Assembly: GCA_023402015.1 (NCBI GenBank)
Contig: JAEXCU010000013.1
Coordinates: forward strand, 59,604 to 123,603
Direction of reading: 5' to 3'
DNA length: 64,000 nucleotides
DNA from: Pseudomonadota bacterium
GTDB lineage: Bacteria; Pseudomonadota; Alphaproteobacteria; Rs-D84
The notes under the pieces are model-generated. The model saw nothing but the letters and a program-made list of their open reading frames with translations. It was not told the DNA's origin and did not search any database. Every line of letters starts with the position of its first letter. Position 1 is the stretch's first letter. Below are positions 31,346-54,403 of this stretch, one piece after another. The translations under genes and the position numbers were made by a program.

Positions 31346-31927
31346 TTAATTACCGTAATAACAATTTTCTGTGAATGTAAAAATACCTGCGGAATCGTTA
31401 TTGCTGGTGTCGGACGGAATATAGCACGATGTTTGTGATGTGCTGCCGGCCGCAGATGTTCCGGTCATGCTGTCTGCGGTGGGGCAAATTGTGCAACCGG
31501 ATGTTCCGTTTGATGAACTGCCATAATAACCGGGTGCGCAGCGGTACGTGGTTGTTTCATTACATGTATTACAACTGCATGTGCGTGTTGTTTTTTTCTG
31601 ATACCCGGTGGCGTGCGCGGACCAATCAGAATCACTGGTGCAATTGCTGCATCCGGTGCATGCGCGTTCACACGTATCGTATTCATATGTGCATCCACCT
31701 GCGGAATATGTTGCCGTGATATGTTTAATGTTATATCCGGATTTGCATTTGGTGCACGTGCTGATGGCTTTGCCGCCCAAACATCCCAACAGACTGACAC
31801 TGCTGCAACCAATCATTAATCCGGCGGACATTCCGTCGGGGCAATATTCCATTGAACATACATAACCATGTGCGGGCGCAACAAATGTGCATCCCAAACA
31901 GACCATGGTTAAAATTATTTTTTTCAT
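31346..31927 (-). CDS. cysteine-rich secreted protein
   Basis: 193 aa, signal peptide MKKIILTMVCLGCTFVAPAHG, about 28 Cys with CxxC/CSxC/TCxC spacing; AGGAGA RBS. Confidence 0.6.
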   Translation of the reverse strand: MKKIILTMVCLGCTFVAPAHGYVCSMEYCPDGMSAGLMIGCSSVSLLGCLGGKAISTCTKCKSGYNIKHITATYSAGGCTYEYDTCERACTGCSNCTSDSDWSAHATGYQKKTTRTCSCNTCNETTTYRCAPGYYGSSSNGTSGCTICPTADSMTGTSAAGSTSQTSCYIPSDTSNNDSAGIFTFTENCYYGN

Positions 31928-32186
31928 TGTCCGCTCTCCTGTTATTTTTTCAGAATGAAAAAACCACCAACAATATTGGTGGTCAGGAGGTTGACTACAA
32001 TCTTATGAATTGTGCTGTGTATTGTTAATATTTCACAACCCTCCTGACCCAATGGGTCGGGAGTGTATTTTTCGTCGTAATTGTAAAACGGGCGCCAAAG
32101 CGCGCCACGAGATTGTATTCCGACGCATAAGCAGGGTAGTCACACCCCATTGACGGAACACCCGCCAACAAAATAATTATATATTG
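31928..32186 (-). ncRNA. structured RNA leader, family member D (5' UTR of the Cys-rich protein gene)
   Basis: TATATAAT -10; conserved GGTGTGACTACCCTGC block; hairpin CTCCCGACCCATTGGGTCAGGAGGGTTGTGAAATAT; terminal hairpin CCACCAATATTGTTGGTGG+TTTTTT 30 nt before the ATG; homologous to leaders A/B/C with compensatory stem changes. Confidence 0.55.
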
Positions 32187-32204
32187 CCAATGGTGTAAAT
32201 ACAA

Positions 32205-32236
32205 GAAATAAAAAATGCCGATTTGAATCGGCATTT
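32205..32236. terminator. intrinsic terminator
   Basis: aaaaaatgccgatttgaatcggcatttt. Confidence 0.6.
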
Positions 32237-32238
32237 TA

Positions 32239-32484
32239 TTAACGTGTTGTTTGATTGTTGTTTTGCTGTGATTGTTGGATTTGTTTTTTGCGCGACAACA
32301 TCAATTTTAATTTTGCAATTCCCGCGCGGAATTTATCCATCATCGTTGGGGCATCAAATCGTTCCTGTTCCCTGCGCGCGGCATGACGTAATTTGGCCGC
32401 CGCGTTGGCGTCTTCTTGGCGTTTGATTTCTTCGGGTGGTTGGGAATAGTCAACCTGATAAACTTTTTCATCTTCGTATGGCAT
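32239..32484 (-). CDS. small hypothetical protein downstream of virB11-like gene
   Basis: ATG 32482-32484 with AAGGAG RBS; about 81 aa, charged; overlaps the end of the upstream ATPase gene. Confidence 0.4.
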   Translation of the reverse strand: MPYEDEKVYQVDYSQPPEEIKRQEDANAAAKLRHAARREQERFDAPTMMDKFRAGIAKLKLMLSRKKQIQQSQQNNNQTTR

Positions 32485-32518
32485 TACTTGCTCCTTATAT
32501 TTTATTGGTGGGTTAGAT

Positions 32519-33478
32519 TTATACAACCTCGGTCACAGCGCGCAGTGAACCGTCGCGCGATAATTGAACAACGCGAATTTTCTGTTTCATTTCTGCAATT
32601 AAATCTGTTCTGTCGTATGCGGGTTGCGTGTGTAAAATGCGGTCTGCGAATGCGGCGTATGCAGCATCGGCACTTTCCGCGTGAATTGTTGTGTAAAAAT
32701 GGTCATGTCCGGTTCCCAACATTTCCCACAAAACCGCGGCGTTGTCGGTGGAAATTTCACCACCAATAATAACGTCGGGTGTCATGCGAACCACCAAATC
32801 CAGTAATCGTGCATAGTTAAAATCATTCGTTTGTTCGGTACGCGACAAAACAAAGTGCACGCGGTTTGGTTGGGGAACGCGGATTTCACGCGCATCTTCC
32901 ACGGTGATGACACGACTGTTGATATCAATCAATGTCAACAAATGATTCAAGAATGTTGTTTTTCCGGTGGCGGTGGCACCACTGATGATAATCGGACTGC
33001 CGTCATTTACGGCCGTCATTAAACGTTCGTATGGGTCATCGGGGCGCACACTTTCGCGCGGTTTAACCTTTAATAATTTTTCACCACGACGCAGATGATA
33101 GTTTTCAAAACTGACGTCCGGTGCATTGCCGCCGCGAATACTCATGGCGACGCCGCCCGTTACATCGCGCTCATCGTATTGAACGTTTGGACCGGCAATT
33201 GCAGTAAATCTGTGATTCCCGGGCAGGGTGGCGTACACCACCGGCATGCCATGAATGGGATCAAATGGCCGTTCATAAATGTTTGCAACCGTATGAATTA
33301 AATCCACCAGGTATTGTTTGGTCAGAACATCGGCATTATATGCAACCCACGGAACGCGGGCACCGTGCAGACGCATCCAAACCTGGCCCGCGTGATTAAT
33401 GGCGATTTCTTCTACAAATGATGGTTTGTAAAATTCTTCCAGTGGGCGCAGTAAAGATTCCAGAACAACGTTTGACAT
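32519..33478 (-). CDS. virB11: VirB11-family type IV secretion/traffic ATPase (orphan)
   Basis: Walker A ISGATATGKTT, Walker B/Asp box, His box IHAESADAAYAAF; about 320 aa as in VirB11/TrbB; ATG at 33476-33478. Confidence 0.65.
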   Translation of the reverse strand: MSNVVLESLLRPLEEFYKPSFVEEIAINHAGQVWMRLHGARVPWVAYNADVLTKQYLVDLIHTVANIYERPFDPIHGMPVVYATLPGNHRFTAIAGPNVQYDERDVTGGVAMSIRGGNAPDVSFENYHLRRGEKLLKVKPRESVRPDDPYERLMTAVNDGSPIIISGATATGKTTFLNHLLTLIDINSRVITVEDAREIRVPQPNRVHFVLSRTEQTNDFNYARLLDLVVRMTPDVIIGGEISTDNAAVLWEMLGTGHDHFYTTIHAESADAAYAAFADRILHTQPAYDRTDLIAEMKQKIRVVQLSRDGSLRAVTEVV

Positions 33479-33554
33479 TGTTTTAATTTTATCATAAATC
33501 CTGACTTGAATCAAAAAGGTTTATTTGATAAAATTAAGAAAAAGAGAGATTAAT

Positions 33555-34118
33555 ATGAAAAAAACATTACTTTGTGCAATTTGTTCCGCAGTTTTGTTGG
33601 GCGCATGCGCGTCGGATTCTGATGCGCCGTATAATACCGCCGATTTTGCCCAGGGTGGTGCCGATGCGCCATTGTACAACGAACGTACCAGTGAATTTAT
33701 GCAATCTGATAATCAATATTCAAATATTGATTCATACAAACCAAAAACTGCGGCGGAAAAAGAACAAAGTGATAATCGTTGGAATACATCGCGGATGGAA
33801 ACGCGCTGGCAAGAATACAAGGGCGCAATGGTTCGCGTTCAGATTCTGTTGGGTAATACCGATTTGCGCGAAATGCGCCTGCGTTTGATGCAAAATGCCG
33901 ACGGTATGGATATCGACGGCGATGCACGTACAATTTTGGCCAAGGTTGCAGATTACGAAATGAAACGAATTTGTGGTCGCAATGCCGACAGTATTGTTAT
34001 GGTTTACGATCGTCCGTCATTTGATGTAATGCGTCCAACACCATTCTTTGATTATCGGATCGAAGCCGAAGGCGCCACCATGCGTGAATACGGTTTCCGT
34101 TGTGTTTACAATAATTAA
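33555..34118 (+). CDS. hypothetical lipoprotein
   Basis: ATG 33555 after AAAGAGAGA RBS; lipobox LLGAC. Confidence 0.55.
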   Translation: MKKTLLCAICSAVLLGACASDSDAPYNTADFAQGGADAPLYNERTSEFMQSDNQYSNIDSYKPKTAAEKEQSDNRWNTSRMETRWQEYKGAMVRVQILLGNTDLREMRLRLMQNADGMDIDGDARTILAKVADYEMKRICGRNADSIVMVYDRPSFDVMRPTPFFDYRIEAEGATMREYGFRCVYNN

Positions 34119-34139
34119 TTAACCAAAAACGGGGGAAAT

Positions 34140-34469
34140 ATGAAAAAGATTATGTCTGCGGCCGCATTGTGCGGTGCATTGGTTTTGGGTGCCTGCGACA
34201 GCAATGCCGGCGCACAGAATGGCGATACGGTTGTAATTGACTTTGCGGGGTATTTGGACGGGGTTCAATTCCCGGGTGGTACCGCAACCGGATTTCCATT
34301 AAAATTGGGCAGTGGCCAATTTGTTCCCGGATTCGAAGAACAATTAATCGGCGCGTCCAAGGGTGAATCGCGTGATGTAAACATAACATTCCCGCAAAAT
34401 TATTATCCGGAATTGGCCGGCAAAGATGTCGTGTTCAAGGTAAAAGTTCAAGATATCGTAAAAGAATAA
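34140..34469 (+). CDS. FKBP-type peptidyl-prolyl cis-trans isomerase (periplasmic lipoprotein)
   Basis: Lipobox LVLGAC; FKBP core GDTVVIDFAGYLDGVQF...GSGQFVPGFEEQLIGASKGE...VVFKVKV. Confidence 0.7.
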   Translation: MKKIMSAAALCGALVLGACDSNAGAQNGDTVVIDFAGYLDGVQFPGGTATGFPLKLGSGQFVPGFEEQLIGASKGESRDVNITFPQNYYPELAGKDVVFKVKVQDIVKE

Positions 34470-34496
34470 AAAACGCCCGTATGGGCGTTTTTTTCG
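34470..34496. terminator. intrinsic terminator
   Basis: aaaaaacgcccgtatgggcgttttttt. Confidence 0.65.
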
Positions 34497-34680
34497 TGAT
34501 ACGTAATAGGTGATACGATTTTTTAAAACCATCACCCCCATTGTCATTGCGAGGACCACCGGGACTAAGCAATCCAGTTAACTAACTTTGCCGCTTTATT
34601 TATGGATTGCCATCCGTCCACACTTCGTGTGGCCGCGACGGACGCGGGAATGACAAGACCATTTATTATTGAATTATGCA
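34497..34680. repeat. palindromic repeat cluster (GTGATACGTAATAGGTGATACG; GTCATTGCGAGG; TGGATTGCC; CCACACTTCGTGTGG)
   Basis: Same families as 18372-18600 / 30603-30850. Confidence 0.75.
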
Positions 34681-34681
34681 A

Positions 34682-34854
34682 ATATTCATTGTATAATGCG
34701 AATGCATCGGGCGATTCCCGATGTGAGGTGTAGTACCCTCATATAAGACATTTCTCCAACATGGTTGGAGGGTTGCGATATACTTGAATAAGCAACACTA
34801 TTCTTGTAGTAGGTACTAACCTCCAACCGCCCTTAATCACGGCGGTGTTTTTTT
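34682..34854 (+). ncRNA. structured RNA leader, family member A (upstream of small XRE HTH gene)
   Basis: ATATTCATTGTATAAT promoter-like start; hairpin CATCGGGCGATTCCCGATG; GAGGTGTAGTACCCTCATAT; hairpin CTCCAACATGGTTGGAGGGTTGCGATAT; terminator CCGCCCTTAATCACGGCGG+TGTTTTTTT. Confidence 0.6.
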
Positions 34855-34857
34855 AAC

Positions 34858-34925
34858 TGGATTGCCACGCTGCACTTTGTTTGCTCGCAATGACAACGCT
34901 TTGTCGTCGCGAGGGAGTAAAACGA
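34858..34925. repeat. palindromic repeat unit inserted between leader A and its HTH gene
   Basis: TGGATTGCCACGCTGCACTTTGTTTGCTCGCAATGACAA...GTCGTCGCGAGGGAG, same family. Confidence 0.7.
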
Positions 34926-34963
34926 CCGTGGCGTTCCATAAAAAGAAAACCCAAGGAGGAAAA

Positions 34964-35203
34964 ATGTTAAAAGTACAAACAGAACGTGAATTTTACCAAA
35001 ATCTGGGCAAATTCATTCGCCGTGTTCGCAGGCGATCGGGTATGAGTCCGTTTTATGCCGGCAGGACAGTTGGAATTAACGGCACGATGTTCTATGCAAT
35101 TGAAAAAGGCGATGTCGTCCCCACACCATATCAGATATATAAAATTATTTGCACTTGGTGGCCGGAATATCTGCGACAAATTGAACGCGACAACAAAATA
35201 TAA
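34964..35203 (+). CDS. small XRE-family HTH protein (paralog group with 38523-38753 and 53905-54138)
   Basis: AAGGAGGAAAAATG start context shared with paralog B; HTH GMSPFYAGRTVGINGTMFYAIEKG; 80 aa. Confidence 0.65.
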   Translation: MLKVQTEREFYQNLGKFIRRVRRRSGMSPFYAGRTVGINGTMFYAIEKGDVVPTPYQIYKIICTWWPEYLRQIERDNKI

Positions 35204-35226
35204 AAACGCCCGGTTGGGCGTTTTTA
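35203..35226. terminator. intrinsic terminator (bidirectional, shared with lpxI)
   Basis: aaaaacgcccggttgggcgttttt. Confidence 0.65.
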
Positions 35227-36048
35227 ATTATCCATTGCCACAATAAATATTTTATGTTTGTTTGCGGCCTGAATTACCGCCGGTTTATCCACAACAAAGC
35301 ATGTTTTTGCATTTACCACAATTCCACGCAGATGTGCCGCCGCAACCGCGTTTACCGTGTCCACACCAATGGCGGGGATGTCAATTCGTAAATCCTGGCC
35401 GGGTTTGGTCATTTTGGCAAAAACACCACTGGATTTTTTATGATTTTTCCGCATTTCCACCACGCGGGCCAACATTTTTGCGGTGCCTTCGGCGGCCTCA
35501 ACCCCGATAACCTGTTTATCAACGACGACCGATGCGCCAATGTCTGCGGCGCCGATTGTATGTGAAACCTCTATCGCGCGGTTAATATTTTTTTTATCTG
35601 CGGCCGTTGGTTTTGTTCGTGTCTGAACGCCCGGTGTTGCGAACGTTAATTCCGGCGCCAAATCCTGGGCCGCGACAATTTCAAATCCACGCTTTTCCAA
35701 TACTTTGTTCAATGCAACCCCCATGGAATCATATCCCCGTTGATGTTTTTTTATACTGACCAATGCCGTTAATGTCCATAAATCCGGCCATAAATCCGAT
35801 AAATTTGGATGCCCCAGTGCGCCCACAAAAACCAATTTGCGAATTCCACGCCGGCGCAATGCGCGCGCGCCGCGGCCGCATCCGCCCAATCGCACCACCA
35901 GGTCGGGTTTCAATCGCGGGTCATAAAAGTTTTTCAGTCCCACCGTAAAAACATCCCATCCATTATTACGCAGCGCGTCGCGCGTAAAAAACGGCAAATC
36001 CAAGGCGCCGGCCACCACGGCAATTTTTTTATCTGTGTTTTTCTTCAT
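35224..36048 (-). CDS. lpxI: UDP-2,3-diacylglucosamine hydrolase LpxI (DUF1009)
   Basis: KIAVVAGALDLPFF N-terminus and DUF1009 body; ATG at 36046-36048; alphaproteobacterial LpxH replacement. Confidence 0.65.
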   Translation of the reverse strand: MKKNTDKKIAVVAGALDLPFFTRDALRNNGWDVFTVGLKNFYDPRLKPDLVVRLGGCGRGARALRRRGIRKLVFVGALGHPNLSDLWPDLWTLTALVSIKKHQRGYDSMGVALNKVLEKRGFEIVAAQDLAPELTFATPGVQTRTKPTAADKKNINRAIEVSHTIGAADIGASVVVDKQVIGVEAAEGTAKMLARVVEMRKNHKKSSGVFAKMTKPGQDLRIDIPAIGVDTVNAVAAAHLRGIVVNAKTCFVVDKPAVIQAANKHKIFIVAMDN

Positions 36049-36138
36049 ATGTGTAATGGTACGCATAAATGGGGCTGGAATCAAGTTTTGATTTATGATA
36101 GACTTTTAATAAAGTAAAAATTCTGGGGTAAAATTAAT

Positions 36139-36909
36139 ATGAAAAAAATATCATATCTGGGAATTTTGGCCGTAATATTGACATGCAACGTTGCAAATGC
36201 GGCGAAATCTGATAAACAATTTCGGGCCGAAATATTGGATGGTTTGGACATCGTGGCCGCGCGCGACAATGTTGATGTGTTTGCTGATGCCGCGCCGGGT
36301 GAATTGGGACTGGAAGTATATGAAACAGTCGGCGTGGTTGATGCCAATGCAACCAAGGTTTTTATCCCAACAACCATGTACGTGCGTGGCGGTGGGGGCC
36401 TGAATTTGGGATTTGCCACCGACAAAGCAAAATTTGCCGGCCAAGAATACGAAAGCAGTGGCAGTTATACCGTACAATTGGGTCTGGGGTGGAATTTATC
36501 GTCATATGTTCGCACAGAAATTGATTTCCAGACATCTACGTTTGAATTTTCTGACCTGCCACAGGCACAGGCAACATATCGCACATTGGGCGGGATGTTA
36601 TACTTTGACCTGGCACGTCGTTATGTTCATACCGGCGACATTACACGTCGCAGAACATTTGTTCCGTTTATGGGATTTGGTGCCGGTTTTGGCCAATACC
36701 AATTTGACGGCCCCGGTGGCGCAGATGGTTTTGTAATTGCGGCGCCACGCGCGGCAATTGGGTTTAATGTAATGTTTAACGACCTGATTGGGATTGATAT
36801 CATGTATCAATATCAGATGATGATTGGCAACGGATTTGGTTGGGATGTGCGTCGTGGCGGTGTTGATAACATCAGCAATATTATGGCGTCTTTCCGCGTT
36901 AACTTTTGA
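36139..36909 (+). CDS. outer-membrane beta-barrel protein (OmpA-like/OmpW-like surface antigen)
   Basis: Signal peptide ILAVILTCNVANA; alternating amphipathic strands; C-terminal SFRVNF with terminal aromatic. Confidence 0.65.
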   Translation: MKKISYLGILAVILTCNVANAAKSDKQFRAEILDGLDIVAARDNVDVFADAAPGELGLEVYETVGVVDANATKVFIPTTMYVRGGGGLNLGFATDKAKFAGQEYESSGSYTVQLGLGWNLSSYVRTEIDFQTSTFEFSDLPQAQATYRTLGGMLYFDLARRYVHTGDITRRRTFVPFMGFGAGFGQYQFDGPGGADGFVIAAPRAAIGFNVMFNDLIGIDIMYQYQMMIGNGFGWDVRRGGVDNISNIMASFRVNF

Positions 36910-36925
36910 CAAGGGATTGTAAAAA

Positions 36926-37576
36926 ATGAAAGCGAAAATTTTATTTGGTTTGATTTGCATATTACCAATGGCGGCAAACGCGGCAATCCCGTATCGCGTG
37001 GAACAGGTTAAAATGCCCGCGCCCGAAACACCCGACGGTTATGACAGCGAGGCATTTGCCCGCCTGCGTCGTTTTTATGTTGGTGGTGCATACAATTTTT
37101 CCATGTGGCAAAATTATACAGATGACAACGATGTGCATGTCGCGGGTAAAAACACTTCGTCGTTTGAGGCCATGGCCGGCGTCCGCGTATTGGATACGTT
37201 CCGGGTCGAGGCAAACTATATCCGCACAAATGCCAAATACAACGCATTTAAACTGACCGGCGATACCGCGATGATTAACGCAATATTTGATGCGCGCATT
37301 GATAATATTTATCGTCTGTTCCGTAAGCAGCGCTTGGTTCCATATGTTGGAATTGGTGGTGGTGTGTCTTGGAACAGTGTGGACGATGCACATATCCAAA
37401 ATAAAATAACACCGGTTGCGGCGGCAATGGCCGGTTTGGGCATCGAATTGGGCGACAGATTTACATTGGATTTCGGATACAGATACATGTACATGTTCAC
37501 ACCAAAATTTGATGTAATTAATGATTTTGCACCAACCGCGCATCAGTTCCGTGCCGGTGCACGTATAAACTTTTAA
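36926..37576 (+). CDS. outer-membrane beta-barrel protein (paralog of preceding gene)
   Basis: Signal peptide ICILPMAANA; C-terminal GARINF; tandem with 36139-36909. Confidence 0.65.
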   Translation: MKAKILFGLICILPMAANAAIPYRVEQVKMPAPETPDGYDSEAFARLRRFYVGGAYNFSMWQNYTDDNDVHVAGKNTSSFEAMAGVRVLDTFRVEANYIRTNAKYNAFKLTGDTAMINAIFDARIDNIYRLFRKQRLVPYVGIGGGVSWNSVDDAHIQNKITPVAAAMAGLGIELGDRFTLDFGYRYMYMFTPKFDVINDFAPTAHQFRAGARINF

Positions 37577-37578
37577 CG

Positions 37579-38502
37579 ATGAATCAATGTCCATTTTTTG
37601 GTAAATGTGGTGGATGCAAATATGATTTTGCATCTGCCAATTATCGCACAGAAAAATTATCAGAACTGCGTGGTGTGCAACCAACCGGGGAACCGTTTTG
37701 GACACCGGTGGGTGTGCGCCGTCGCGCGGATTTTTGCTTTGGCAATGGCCAGTTTGGATTTTACGAATCGCGTTCCAAAAATATTGTTTCCGTAAATCAT
37801 TGTCCAAACTTGGTGAATGAAATAAATGATATTTTGCCGCGTGTCGCGGCGTTGCCATGGGTGGGGGCGGGGGCGTGCCTGATTACTGCATGCGATAACG
37901 GAATTGATATTGCGATAACGTCTGATGTTTCGTTTTTCAGCACAGAATTCAAACAGGCCGCAATGAAATTGCCGGCAATTCGTATAACATGGAATGACCA
38001 AGTTATTAAGTGCGACGCAACGCCAATTATAAAATTTGCGGGCGTGTCATGCGAATATCCGTCCGGTGGATTTTTACAGCCAACCGTGCCCAGTGAATCC
38101 GCACTGCGTGATATGGTTGTTTCGGCGGCAAATGGCGCGCGACGTGTTGCGGATTTGTTTTGTGGTCTGGGGAATTTTACATTTGCATTAAATGCCGATG
38201 GATTTGATATTTCCGGCATTGGTTGCAATCGCGATTTGTTTAAAAAACCGCTGACGGTGGGGATGCTGAATGGATATGATTGCGTGGTAATGGACCCACC
38301 ACGGGCCGGCGCAATGGCACAATGCCAAGAACTGATAAAAAGTAATGTTTCGCGCATTATTTATGTATCGTGCAACCCGGCGACATTTCGGCGCGATGCC
38401 CAGATTTTGACGCGCGGCGGGTATTGTATGAAAAAATTGGTTCCGGTTGACCAATTTGTGGGCAGTAATCATTGGGAAATATTTTCCGTATTTGAAAAAT
38501 AA
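37579..38502 (+). CDS. 23S rRNA (uracil-C5)-methyltransferase RumA/RlmD-like (TrmA family)
   Basis: Fe-S motif CPFFGKCGGCKY, SAM motif DLFCGLGNFT, DPPRAG, nucleophile region VSCNPAT. Confidence 0.75.
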   Translation: MNQCPFFGKCGGCKYDFASANYRTEKLSELRGVQPTGEPFWTPVGVRRRADFCFGNGQFGFYESRSKNIVSVNHCPNLVNEINDILPRVAALPWVGAGACLITACDNGIDIAITSDVSFFSTEFKQAAMKLPAIRITWNDQVIKCDATPIIKFAGVSCEYPSGGFLQPTVPSESALRDMVVSAANGARRVADLFCGLGNFTFALNADGFDISGIGCNRDLFKKPLTVGMLNGYDCVVMDPPRAGAMAQCQELIKSNVSRIIYVSCNPATFRRDAQILTRGGYCMKKLVPVDQFVGSNHWEIFSVFEK

Positions 38503-38528
38503 AAACGCCCAACCGGGCGTTTTTATTT
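38503..38528. terminator. intrinsic terminator (bidirectional)
   Basis: aaaaacgcccaaccgggcgttttt. Confidence 0.65.
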
Positions 38529-38753
38529 CTGGGTTTTTGTGGCACCCCGGGCCCGCATTACCAAAAATCCGAAATGCATCAGACGTTGTATGGTTGTATG
38601 GGGTATCAGTTTGGTTCCCCGTTCGTATCGGACCAAGTCGTGGGTTGTTATGCCCAAAATTTTGGCACATTCCACCAGGGTAAAGTTGGCGCTTTTTCTG
38701 GCACCACGCAGTGCAATGCCAATATGTTTGCAATCAACCAGTATAACAGTCAT
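38523..38753 (-). CDS. small XRE-family HTH protein (paralog B)
   Basis: AAGGAGGAAAAAATG start context nearly identical to paralog A; HTH FTLVECAKILGITTHDLVRYERG; 76 aa. Confidence 0.65.
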   Translation of the reverse strand: MTVILVDCKHIGIALRGARKSANFTLVECAKILGITTHDLVRYERGTKLIPHTTIQRLMHFGFLVMRARGATKTQK

Positions 38754-38775
38754 TTTTTCCTCCTTGGGTTTTCTA

Positions 38776-38944
38776 AAAAAACACCGCCGTGATTAAAGGC
38801 GGTTGGAGGTTCATACCTATTATGCAATAGTGCTGTTTATTAGATATTCACAGCCCTCCAACCAATGTGGAGAGTTTAACATATGAGGGTATGAAACCTC
38901 GCATTGGTAATCAACCAATGCATGTGTATTATACAATGAATATT
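38776..38944 (-). ncRNA. structured RNA leader, family member B (inverted copy of A)
   Basis: Minus-strand reading: ATATTCATTGTATAATACACATG + hairpin CATTGGTTGATTACCAATG + GAGGTTTCATACCCTCATAT + CTCTCCACATTGGTTGGAGGGCTGTGAATAT + CCGCCTTTAATCACGGCGG TGTTTTTTT; stem changes compensatory relative to A. Confidence 0.6.
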
Positions 38945-39112
38945 TACACAATTCAACAGTAAACATGGCGCGGCTTTGCCTTGCAAAGACGGCTGGATCG
39001 CCGCGGTCGCTTCTCTCCCTCGCGATGACAAAGAACTGTCATTGCGAGCAAACGAAGTGCAGCGTGGCAATCCAGTATTATAATATTCATAAAAAAACGC
39101 CGCCGGTTTCCC
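38945..39112. repeat. palindromic repeat cluster (CTCGCGATGACAAAGAACTGTCATTGCGAGC...TGGCAATCCAG)
   Basis: Same family as 18372-18600. Confidence 0.75.
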
Positions 39113-53904: not shown

Positions 53905-54138
53905 TCAGATTTTGGGCCAGTTTTCGCCCTTGATTAAATCAGGCTGGGTCGCATTTATAAACAGATACATTTGATATATGCTGATTGGTTTCTGGGCCGA
54001 TTCATATTGTTGATATTCAACCAATGATACGCCCAATTTATCGGCAATGAATTGCTGGGATAAACCCAACTTTTCACGTGTTGCGCGAATTGATGCGGCA
54101 ATTTCCTGATAGAACATTTGTTCATTTTTATTTTGCAT
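53905..54138 (-). CDS. small XRE-family HTH protein (paralog C)
   Basis: ATG 54136-54138 after GGGGAGGGGATAACAAAC; HTH LSQQFIADKLGVSLVEYQQYESA; 78 aa. Confidence 0.6.
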   Translation of the reverse strand: MQNKNEQMFYQEIAASIRATREKLGLSQQFIADKLGVSLVEYQQYESAQKPISIYQMYLFINATQPDLIKGENWPKI

Positions 54139-54356
54139 GTTTGTTATCCCCTCCCCACACTTGCTCCGATGAAATACCACCATATAAATATGGTGGTTGG
54201 AGTTTAAGAACAATTGAGTGAATTGCGTGCTCTATTCAATATATTCAGCACACTCCAACCACTTGGTTGGACTTTCACCCGCTTTGGATGAAACACTCAA
54301 GGGATTCTTACGCCCCATGGCAGAAATCACGCTGCCACAGAAAGATTATATGGTTT
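54139..54356 (-). ncRNA. structured RNA leader, family member C
   Basis: Minus strand: CCATATAAT -10, hairpin GGCAGCGTGATTTCTGCC, CTCCAACCAAGTGGTTGGAGTGTGCTGAATAT, terminal hairpin CCACCATATTTATATGGTGG + TATTT, then RBS. Confidence 0.5.
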
Positions 54357-54377
54357 ATTTCACAGTTTCGCAAGATT

Positions 54378-54403
54378 AAAAAACGCCCGTAATTGGGCGT
54401 TTT
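54378..54403. terminator. intrinsic terminator after rne
   Basis: aaaaaacgcccgtaattgggcgtttt. Confidence 0.6.

Follow-up and report, generated by a model that had tools for sequence, protein, structure and literature searches.

What are four look-alike leaders doing in a single stretch of bacterial chromosome, and is their shared design a property of RNA or only of DNA? The stretch considered here, called the window below, is the whole 64,000 nucleotides (nt) analyzed from contig JAEXCU010000013.1 (positions 59,604 to 123,603) of the alphaproteobacterial assembly GCA_023402015.1, and it is ordinary chromosome, whose genes include PriA, LpxI, and a tRNA methyltransferase. The original prediction, made from the sequence alone, held that four loci in it (copies A to D) share one architecture, that of a structured RNA leader ahead of a small XRE-type helix-turn-helix (HTH) gene or a Cys-rich secreted protein. 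Three approaches recover all four just where they had been placed. The pattern shared by their 3' halves, GGAGNGNNNNGAN{5,10}AATANNNNNNNCWATTN{12,18}AAMCTCC, has exactly 4 matches in the 64-kb window, with 0.00 expected from 100 shuffles; a covariance model (R1; 130 positions, 23 pairs, built from 54 family members) finds only copies A to D, at 78.7 to 98.7 bits and E values of 3e-19 to 1e-24; and single-sequence folding gives the four one common layout. The RNA unit that they have in common is about 150 to 220 nt long, and each copy has its own promoter. Copies A to D are real copies of an undescribed, strongly structured, multi-copy leader RNA, and we discuss below the evidence for its structure, the switch that it appears to contain, and the genes that follow it.

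An RNA family of Rs-D84 gut genomes

Collection by pattern over one genome per species gave at least 117 DNA stretches that carry the family (loci L001 to L117). The collecting pattern fixes GGAG, GA, AAUA, CWAUU, and AAMCUCC, so invariance at those positions is partly by construction, and all family counts given here are sequences, not evolutionary events. Running a covariance model against relatives had been proposed as a check; in the collected loci, R1 returned at least 156 copies at E ≤ 0.01 (138 + 18), which covary strongly, and the 33 R1 matches outside the exact pattern were individually examined. The matches come from at least 71 assemblies, counted by accession prefix. Nearly all those listed are in gut metagenome-assembled genomes (MAGs) titled Alphaproteobacteria, Candidatus Enterousia, or "Rickettsiales bacterium," and the host animals are chicken, goat, deer, horse, mouse, rabbit, human, and termite. 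The MAG BRZ_KL_bin36 has at least 12 copies and CAXHMP01 at least 8. In a published survey, Candidatus Enterousia is placed in the uncultured order Rs-D84, with genomes of about 0.75 to 1.0 Mb that lack the tricarboxylic acid cycle and a respiratory chain (PMC12306168). The element also occurs in L007 and L080 (CAVGNU01, titled Bacteroides fragilis) and in L083 (BGZN01, titled Candidatus Termititenax aidoneus); these records are probably mis-binned or contaminant contigs.

The element had been said to lie outside known RNA families, and this was borne out. Rfam 15 at gathering thresholds found only 5 tRNAs in the whole window. At E ≤ 10, the slices holding the four copies and the best-scoring homolog (31900-39000, 54100-54400, and L070:4760-5010) gave no relevant match, the best overlaps reaching 12 to 19 bits against cut-offs of 38 to 100, and membership in a known family was rejected on both counts. 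A full-text search of the published literature did not find a description of the family. The family pattern had 0 matches in the viral contigs scanned, and a phage origin was rejected for that reason. Devices of this kind are well known; as far as Rfam 15 and the searched literature go, the novelty lies in the family itself, in its fold and regulon, in the arrays, and in how many copies the very small genomes contain.

The layout is given here for copy A, in 5' to 3' order:

34669..34697 (+): promoter, read from sequence, with -35 TTGAAT at 34669-34674, a 17-nt spacer, and -10 TATAAT at 34692-34697
34704..34724 (+): P1, the 5'-terminal hairpin, GCAUCGGG / CCCGAUGU (RNAfold)
34725..34740 (+): S1, hairpin GAGG/CCUC (RNAalifold, covariation)
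34731-34736 (+): 5' strand of S2, UAGUAC, made of S1 loop bases (pseudoknot helix)
34754..34760 (+): segment 1, CUCCAAC, the 5' arm of P3 and the proposed anti-antiterminator (folding)
34763..34771 (+): segment 2, GGUUGGAGG, a partner for segment 1 (P3) or segment 3 (Alt)
34772..34796 (+): P4, GUUGC/GCAAC, with conserved loop GA-UAUACUUG-AAUAA (covariation)
34798..34812 (+): P5, CUAUU/AGUAG (covariation)
34813..34818 (+): 3' strand of S2, GUACUA, partner of the S1 loop at 34731-34736 (covariation)
34820..34828 (+): segment 3, CCUCCAACC, which pairs with segment 2 (Alt, the antiterminator); its last bases are the terminator foot
34826..34854 (+): intrinsic terminator ACCGCC / GGCGGU with a U-run at 34848-34854 (sequence, folding)

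Across the family, the evidence that these helices exist as RNA comes from covariation. In an alignment of 123 sequences (A3), the structure made up of P1, S1, S2, P2a (an optional insert hairpin), Alt, P4, and P5 has 92.6% of its cells paired, and its covariation score is 0.475, compared with 0.172 ± 0.005 for shuffled alignments, none of 500 shuffles reaching the observed value. Control helices slid by 1 to 3 columns had only 34 to 50% of cells paired. An independent RNAalifold run predicts S1, Alt, P4, and P5. Identity among the copies is below 80%, with 90 of the 120 rows used passing the filter. The individual helices behave as follows in A3:

P1: 83.8% paired; 8 of 8 pairs changed on both sides, with many G-U pairs
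S1: 91.9% paired; local hairpin GAGG/CCUC, with compensatory change at 2 to 3 of 4 pairs
S2: 98.1% paired; S1 loop with the strand just 3' of P5; pair 173-345 is GC in 38 copies, AU in 34, UA in 32, and CG in 15
P4: 98.5% paired; compensatory change at 4 of 5 pairs
P5: 97.6% paired; pair 324-341 is AU in 70 copies and UA in 52
Alt: 99.7% paired; segment 2 with segment 3

In L073 and L077 the sequence of P5 has been wholly replaced and its pairing kept. G-U pairs are frequent (59 at pair 141-154 and 43 at pair 327-338, for example), and the constraint therefore acts on the sense-strand RNA and not on the DNA. The partner strand of S2 lies about 80 to 130 nt downstream of the S1 loop. From their sequences, S1 (4 bp), a 2-nt loop, S2 (6 to 7 bp), and a second loop of zero length form a standard H-type pseudoknot. 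With Alt formed, Alt and P4 on the one hand and S2 and P5 on the other would abut with 0 to 1 unpaired nt, making a compact four-helix junction, a geometry taken from alignment column positions. The P4 loop is conserved as GA(A)UAU...(G)AAUAA. Two copies (L066:7456-7601 [−] and L083:363-501 [−]) carry an extra hairpin inside this loop, between GAAUAA and AAAUAA flanks; the conserved part is therefore the A-rich flanks, that is, a conserved internal rather than terminal loop. A long-range "P2 base" helix that joins the 5' GAGG to the 3' CCUC in single-sequence minimum free energy (MFE) folds was rejected, as it shows no covariation; 3 of its 5 pairs are open in 45 to 67 of the 123 copies, and S1 and Alt replace it.

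These results uphold the original suggestion of a functional RNA, which could be a leader of attenuator or riboswitch-like type or a small RNA, since the similarity is one of covariation across homologs and not of recent duplication. The first hairpin does vary in sequence while staying paired, and a terminal GC hairpin with a U-run is present in the copies. Other parts of the structural model needed revision. The conserved GAGGTGTAGTACCCTC-like and GGGYTGYGAATAT blocks exist but do not stand free, being strands of S1/S2 and P4, and the second hairpin (CTCCAAC..GTTGGAG) is present, although its copy D version, described as fully compensatory, contains one C/A mismatch. The S1/S2 pseudoknot, the Alt helix, and the three-way complementarity had to be added, and the earlier description did not include the alternative pairing on which the switch depends.

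A three-segment switch ahead of the ribosome binding site

The center of the element is segment 2, GGUUGGAGG, which is complementary both to segment 1 (CUCCAAC) upstream and to segment 3 (CCUCCAACC) downstream, and all three segments change together. The Alt core is GGAG[G]/[C]CUCC in 78 copies and GGAG[U]/[A]CUCC in about 45, with 1 exception; on its flanks, the tetramers GGUU/AACC are found in 96 copies, GUCA/UGAC in 19, GGCA/UGCC in 1, and GGCU/AGCC in 1, the others being G-U variants. Four more compensated variants occur among the matches found by R1 only: GAUUGG/CCAAUC, UGUUGG/CCAACA, GGUCGGGAG/CUCCCGGCC, and, in L085, an extra G in segment 2 for which segments 1 and 3 have each gained a C. 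At least 9 of the 10 Alt pairs can form in 151 of 156 copies, with a duplex energy of about −17 kcal/mol. P3, the competing helix of segments 1 and 2, can be folded in 143 of 156 copies; its median energy is −10.2 kcal/mol, compared with −4.3 when the upstream sequence is shuffled. The subtypes of segments 1 and 2 go together: a D-type segment 2 gives −3.7 with A-type upstream sequence and −11.6 with other D-type upstream sequence. P3 was scored by direct folding, the D subtype being one column off register in the P3 and terminator regions of A3; the alignment-based figure for terminator pairing is likewise an underestimate, and D-type stems are intact by direct folding.

Segment 3 runs into the terminator. 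The terminator stem starts no more than 3 nt from the end of CUCC in 114 of 124 copies, the last 3 to 4 bases of segment 3 serve as its foot, and U-runs are visible across the family alignment. Blocking the bases shared with Alt shifts the median terminator energy from −11.3 to −5.5 kcal/mol. The predicted GC-rich hairpin and U-run come after a promoter and directly upstream of an open reading frame (ORF), the placement expected of an intrinsic-terminator attenuator. The complementarity, the shared bases, and these energies suggest two states that would be mutually exclusive and of comparable stability. As read from sequence and folding, this arrangement is the anatomy of a terminator/antiterminator switch.

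A further partner for segment 3 may lie in the message itself. The part of segment 3 that the terminator does not use is CCUCCA, or CCUCCUG in the D subtype, and when the read-through RNA is folded (MFE), it is paired with the Shine-Dalgarno (SD) zone in 88 of 104 copies. The base ahead of the GGAG of the ribosome binding site (RBS) is U in 14 of 48 A/C-type leaders, compared with 5% of background ORFs, and CA precedes it (CAGGAG) in 13 of 14 D-type leaders, compared with 20% of the background. This fits an RBS that mimics segment 2 and may compete with it for segment 3. GGAG lies within 20 nt of the first ATG in about 10% of long background ORFs from loci L001 to L117 and the window, compared with about half or more of the leader genes; the comparison, biased by the start-calling method, hints that strong SDs are a special feature of the regulon. 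In many copies the terminator U-run also finds a complement in an A-rich tract directly ahead of the RBS (UUUUUUGUUU..AACAAAAAA; examples are L008, L020, and 31941-31963 at copy D), and in read-through folds this pairing makes a third small hairpin inside the helix of segment 3 with the SD.

We think it likely, from these features, that each copy serves as 5' leader to a transcription unit of its own and acts in cis as a conditional intrinsic terminator combined with an SD lock. In one state (state Y), segments 1 and 2 would form P3, leaving segment 3 free and letting the terminator form, so that transcription would stop about 20 nt ahead of the RBS; in any RNA that read through, the CCUCC of segment 3 could pair with the SD. 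In the other (state X), segments 2 and 3 would form the 9- to 10-bp Alt helix, which would close the tight four-helix junction with P4, P5, and S2; the terminator would lose its foot, the SD would stay free, and the gene would be expressed. Some signal would choose between the two. Our best guess, for a direction that we only infer, is that this signal stabilizes the junction and pseudoknot of state X and that the device is thus an ON switch. It is about equally likely that the signal is a small ligand or second messenger and that it is a protein or RNA that keeps the A-rich linker and segment 1 single-stranded. As in riboswitches, a conserved, covarying domain lies upstream of the gene, and the alternative pairing of the expression platform overlaps the sensor domain. 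To place the element among riboswitches on the strength of ligand binding would nevertheless be pure speculation, and the downstream genes suggest no ligand.

Promoters, downstream genes, subtypes, and arrays

The promoters and the spacing of the downstream genes bear directly on this cis reading. The -10 elements proposed originally are conserved and of sigma-70 type: a match of at least 5 of 6 is present in 96 of 101 copies and ends 6 to 8 nt before P1 in 77. The TATAAT sequences of copies A and B are likewise as described, while the TGn extension ascribed to them is not there, as a TTG directly abuts TATAAT, one base off the extended -10 register. In 111 of 124 copies, the 400 nt that follow include an SD-preceded ORF start; its median distance from CUCC is 55 nt (10th to 90th percentile, 46 to 65), which places it about 20 nt past the U-run. 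This distance is fixed and short, with no room for a second promoter, so that expression of the genes depends on read-through. It is this constant spacing, together with the overlap of antiterminator and terminator, that makes us favor a leader acting in cis.

Small XRE HTH proteins make up 42 of the 111 downstream proteins (38%), almost all of them behind A-type leaders. Many of the remaining proteins are orphans with signal-peptide-like N-termini, often rich in Cys, and at least 26 have more than 6% Cys. The non-XRE families have 13, 12, 5, 5, and 4 members, and one protein each matches PFK, an outer-membrane beta-barrel, and Imp-YgjV. The leader subtypes sort with these genes. Of the 42 XREs, 38 follow a leader of the GGAGG/AACC subtype, which has mostly such genes behind it; the UGAC subtype stands before one Cys-rich family (11 of 12), and the GGAGU/ACUCC subtype before a 140-amino-acid (aa) Cys-rich family and others. 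Two or three subtypes can occur within one genome, as they do in the window. It had been considered that the XRE proteins are themselves RNA-binding effectors; this was rejected, as they look like ordinary, divergent HTH_3-type proteins with a variable recognition region, and nothing supports RNA binding by them, though no direct test was aimed at it.

The other three units of the window and the genes that follow the four copies are as follows:

34964..35203 (+): gene after A, 79-aa XRE-type HTH (HTH_31, below the Pfam curated cut-off), with RBS AAGGAGG at 34953-34959
38775..38933 (−): copy B unit, from -10 at 38928-38933 to U-run at 38775-38781; 85.5 bits
38867-38872, 38855-38863, and 38801-38809 (−): copy B segments 1, 2, and 3
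38889-38894 and 38811-38816 (−): copy B S2 strands
38523..38753 (−): gene after B, 76-aa XRE-type HTH, with its RBS 10 nt past the U-run
54168..54350 (−): copy C unit, with -10 at 54345-54350 and P2a insert hairpin at 54273-54293; 98.7 bits
54265-54271, 54252-54260, and 54195-54203 (−): copy C segments 1, 2 (GGUUGGAGU), and 3 (ACUCCAACC)
53905..54138 (−): gene after C, 77-aa XRE HTH (HTH_3, E 3.6e-8)
31957..32204 (−): copy D unit, "UGAC" subtype, with -35 at 32199-32204, -10 at 32176-32181, and terminator end at 31957; 78.7 bits
32073-32125 (−): large P2a insert of copy D
32055-32063, 32040-32049, and 31981-31990 (−): copy D segments 1 (CUCCCGACC), 2 (GGUCAGGAGG), and 3 (CCUCCUGACC)
31346..31927 (−): gene after D, 193-aa Cys-rich protein with a signal-peptide-like N-terminus, with RBS CAGGAG at 31936-31941
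34881..34917 (+): palindromic repeat between the copy A terminator and RBS, outside the RNA family

The downstream genes are thus as first described, three small XRE HTH genes (79, 76, and 77 aa) and one gene for a Cys-rich protein of secreted type (193 aa), and the start contexts called near-identical are so for A and B only (both AAGGAGGAAAAATG), that of C being GGGGAGGGGATAACAAACATG. The XRE proteins match Pfam HTH_3, HTH_31, or HTH_19, with only the 77-aa one clearing the Pfam curated cut-off, and the 79-aa protein after A belongs to the 42-protein XRE cluster. The 193-aa protein after D is 10.9% Cys and belongs to a 12-member family, of which 11 stand behind D-type leaders. Just upstream of the copy D promoter ends a type II/IV secretion-family ATPase gene (Pfam T2SSE; 32519-33514 [−]) with its own terminator.

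The palindromic repeat, TTGCTCGCAATGACA..TGTCRTCGCGAGGGAG, has two copies in the window. The one at 34881-34917 (+) accounts for the 100-nt gap between terminator and RBS in A, where it has been inserted, and the one at 39015-39051 (−) lies upstream of the copy B promoter. Fragments that resemble it flank leaders in L005, L038, L055, and L077, and it is probably a small mobile or REP-like element.

Some copies are arranged in tandem, the longest arrays being the following:

L075:3957-5045 (−): five units
L098:7038-7894 (−): four units
L056:5586-6132 (−): three units
L066:7456-7998 (−): three units

L052, L067, and L040 also carry arrays; over all these loci the arrays have 2 to 5 complete units, with a period of about 240 nt. 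In L075, every unit has its own promoter, terminator, and RBS remnant, and an XRE gene follows only the last; the units differ in S2, and these differences are exactly compensated. The arrays would also fit a duplication of promoter-leader cassettes through which output is raised and the response made sharper.

Alternative explanations and the meaning of the family

It is also possible, though we consider it unlikely, that the units are genes for trans-acting small RNAs (sRNAs) of about 150 to 220 nt, whose CU-rich, anti-SD-like segment 1 or segment 3 targets the RBSs of mRNAs. Placement before genes would then be secondary, or the terminated leader would have a dual function, so that this possibility and the cis model do not exclude each other. 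Every unit has its own promoter and a strong terminator; the arrays of 2 to 5 units have no ORF between units, show compensated differences, and recur in several assemblies; and in state X segment 1 and the A-rich linker would make a single strand of about 15 nt. Multi-copy or tandem anti-SD sRNAs are moreover present in the Alphaproteobacteria, namely, alpha-r14 and the "cuckoo" CcsR family. Yet about 90% of copies sit at a fixed position about 20 nt upstream of an RBS, where a separate promoter is not possible, and an sRNA seed alone is insufficient to explain why segments 1 and 2 covary within one RNA and why segment 3 overlaps the terminator. The RBS remnant in internal array units fits duplication of a promoter-leader-RBS cassette. 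In the window, the word GGTTGGAG occurs only within leaders, which also speaks against trans action. A search for a trans partner with GGUUGGAG ended in rejection of that candidate, the word being confined to the leaders within the window.

Two other accounts of the element are much less probable. Ribosome-mediated attenuation of the trp type, which we regard as very improbable, would have a leader peptide translated from the P1/S1 junction across segments 1 and 2 to a stop in the P4 loop, with the position of the ribosome deciding among P3, Alt, and the terminator. An ATG is indeed found at the junction in copies B (about 38904), C (54318-54316), and D (32150-32148), opening ORFs of 18, 28, and 47 codons that extend over segments 1 and 2 and end within the 5' arm or the loop of P4, and the conserved P4 loop UUGAAUAA has stop codons in two frames. 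Among the 123 copies, however, only 39 have an ATG, GTG, or TTG near the junction with an ORF that reaches P4 (14 of them an ATG), most such ORFs end before segment 1, there is no conserved start column or SD, and copy A reads ATG-TGA. The junction ORFs of B, C, and D are probably due to chance, and with no ORF conserved across the 123 copies the leader peptide is largely refuted. Still less credible is similarity at the level of DNA only, in which a promoter cassette, a mobile element, or palindromic operators for XRE proteins would have been copied and the RNA structure would be functionless. The family is multi-copy, sometimes tandem, and found beside small palindromic repeats, and P1 is an inverted repeat just past the -10, a possible position for a repressor operator. 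Against this, the helices vary and yet stay paired, and their frequent G-U pairs would become A-C mismatches if the helices lay on the opposite strand or were palindromes of DNA; P1 was rejected as a DNA operator because G-U pairs are abundant in it. The long-range helices S2 and Alt covary over 50 to 130 nt, pairing collapses in the slid-register controls, and the copies are less than 80% identical to each other.

Several points also weigh against a conditional terminator acting in cis. Of the 9 Alt pairs, 4 (GGAG/CUCC) are set by the search pattern, so that their invariance is partly one of ascertainment, and the case for Alt rests for this reason on the free positions and on the 33 matches found by R1 only. 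Termination and read-through are themselves deduced from sequence, and the U-run of copy C is poor. The statistics for the SD lock are soft, because any CUCC pairs with any GGAG in folds, an SD-like motif was a condition for calling a start, and modules of leader and gene that share ancestry cannot be counted as independent. Among the downstream genes there is no metabolic clue. Finally, and chiefly, arrays of up to five units, four of them with no ORF behind, would be unexpected for a purely cis-acting leader.

The proposed switch can also be set beside known systems, whose features are given here from general knowledge. The S-box (SAM-I) riboswitch has a multi-helix junction, a loop pseudoknot, and a closing helix that shares bases with an anti-antiterminator/antiterminator/terminator platform. 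The present family resembles it in its structured 5' leader, pseudoknotted junction, shared-base expression platform, and regulated ORF directly after, but shows no sequence or model similarity (Rfam, E ≤ 10), has the partner hairpin of its pseudoknot outside the closing helix, controls XRE regulators and Cys-rich secreted proteins instead of metabolic genes, and reaches at least 12 copies in a genome of less than 1 Mb. With T-boxes it shares many paralogous copies per genome before different genes, an antiterminator set against a terminator, and variable parts that differ between copies. It differs from them in having no Stem I or specifier loop, no T-box sequence, no antiterminator bulge, and no Rfam T-box match; its antiterminator is a perfect 9- to 10-bp helix, and its variable parts are all base-paired, with no codon-like loop. 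The logic of 1:2 and 3:4 against 2:3 pairing, with segment 1 as the anti-antiterminator and a trans factor that could decide, recalls the trp and pyr (PyrR) attenuators, from which the family departs in having no conserved leader peptide and a larger conserved domain (S1/S2, P4, and P5) around the switch.

The alpha-r14 and CcsR1-4 sRNAs come from the same bacterial class and have CU-rich anti-SD-like motifs, multi-copy tandem arrays, and terminators of their own. Their CCUCCUCCC motifs lie in hairpin loops, whereas the CUCC segments of the present family belong to the strands of competing helices; Rfam gives no match to those sRNA families, and most copies here abut an RBS. The closest style of regulon is that of the cyclic di-GMP riboswitches (GEMM-I/II), which are many-copy cis regulators before surface, secreted, and regulatory genes, but their fold is unrelated and their models give no match.

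What the family does for its hosts can be proposed only tentatively. It is possible that it represents a new class of sensor RNA, either a riboswitch or protein-responsive, and a dominant control device in the reduced (<1 Mb) Rs-D84 gut genomes, where a dozen or more copies might unite XRE genes and variable Cys-rich surface or secreted genes under one signal, such as a second messenger or a cue from the host or a partner. The AACC and UGAC codes would then mark sub-regulons, and the arrays would be amplifiers or a source of trans-acting RNA. The design is in any case unusual in that CCUCCAACC has three competing partners (segment 2, the 3' arm of the terminator, and the SD), and control of both transcription and translation from one switch is therefore possible; the promoter-bearing tandem arrays raise the question of cis versus trans action. 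With more than 150 members and abundant covariation, the alignment is sufficient for work on structure and ligand. Should the switch model hold, a well-supported orphan class would be added to the cis-regulatory RNAs, a single RNA switch would govern a sizeable share of the regulators and of the secreted and surface proteins in a widespread group of uncultured gut bacteria, and it would provide a handle on what these bacteria sense.

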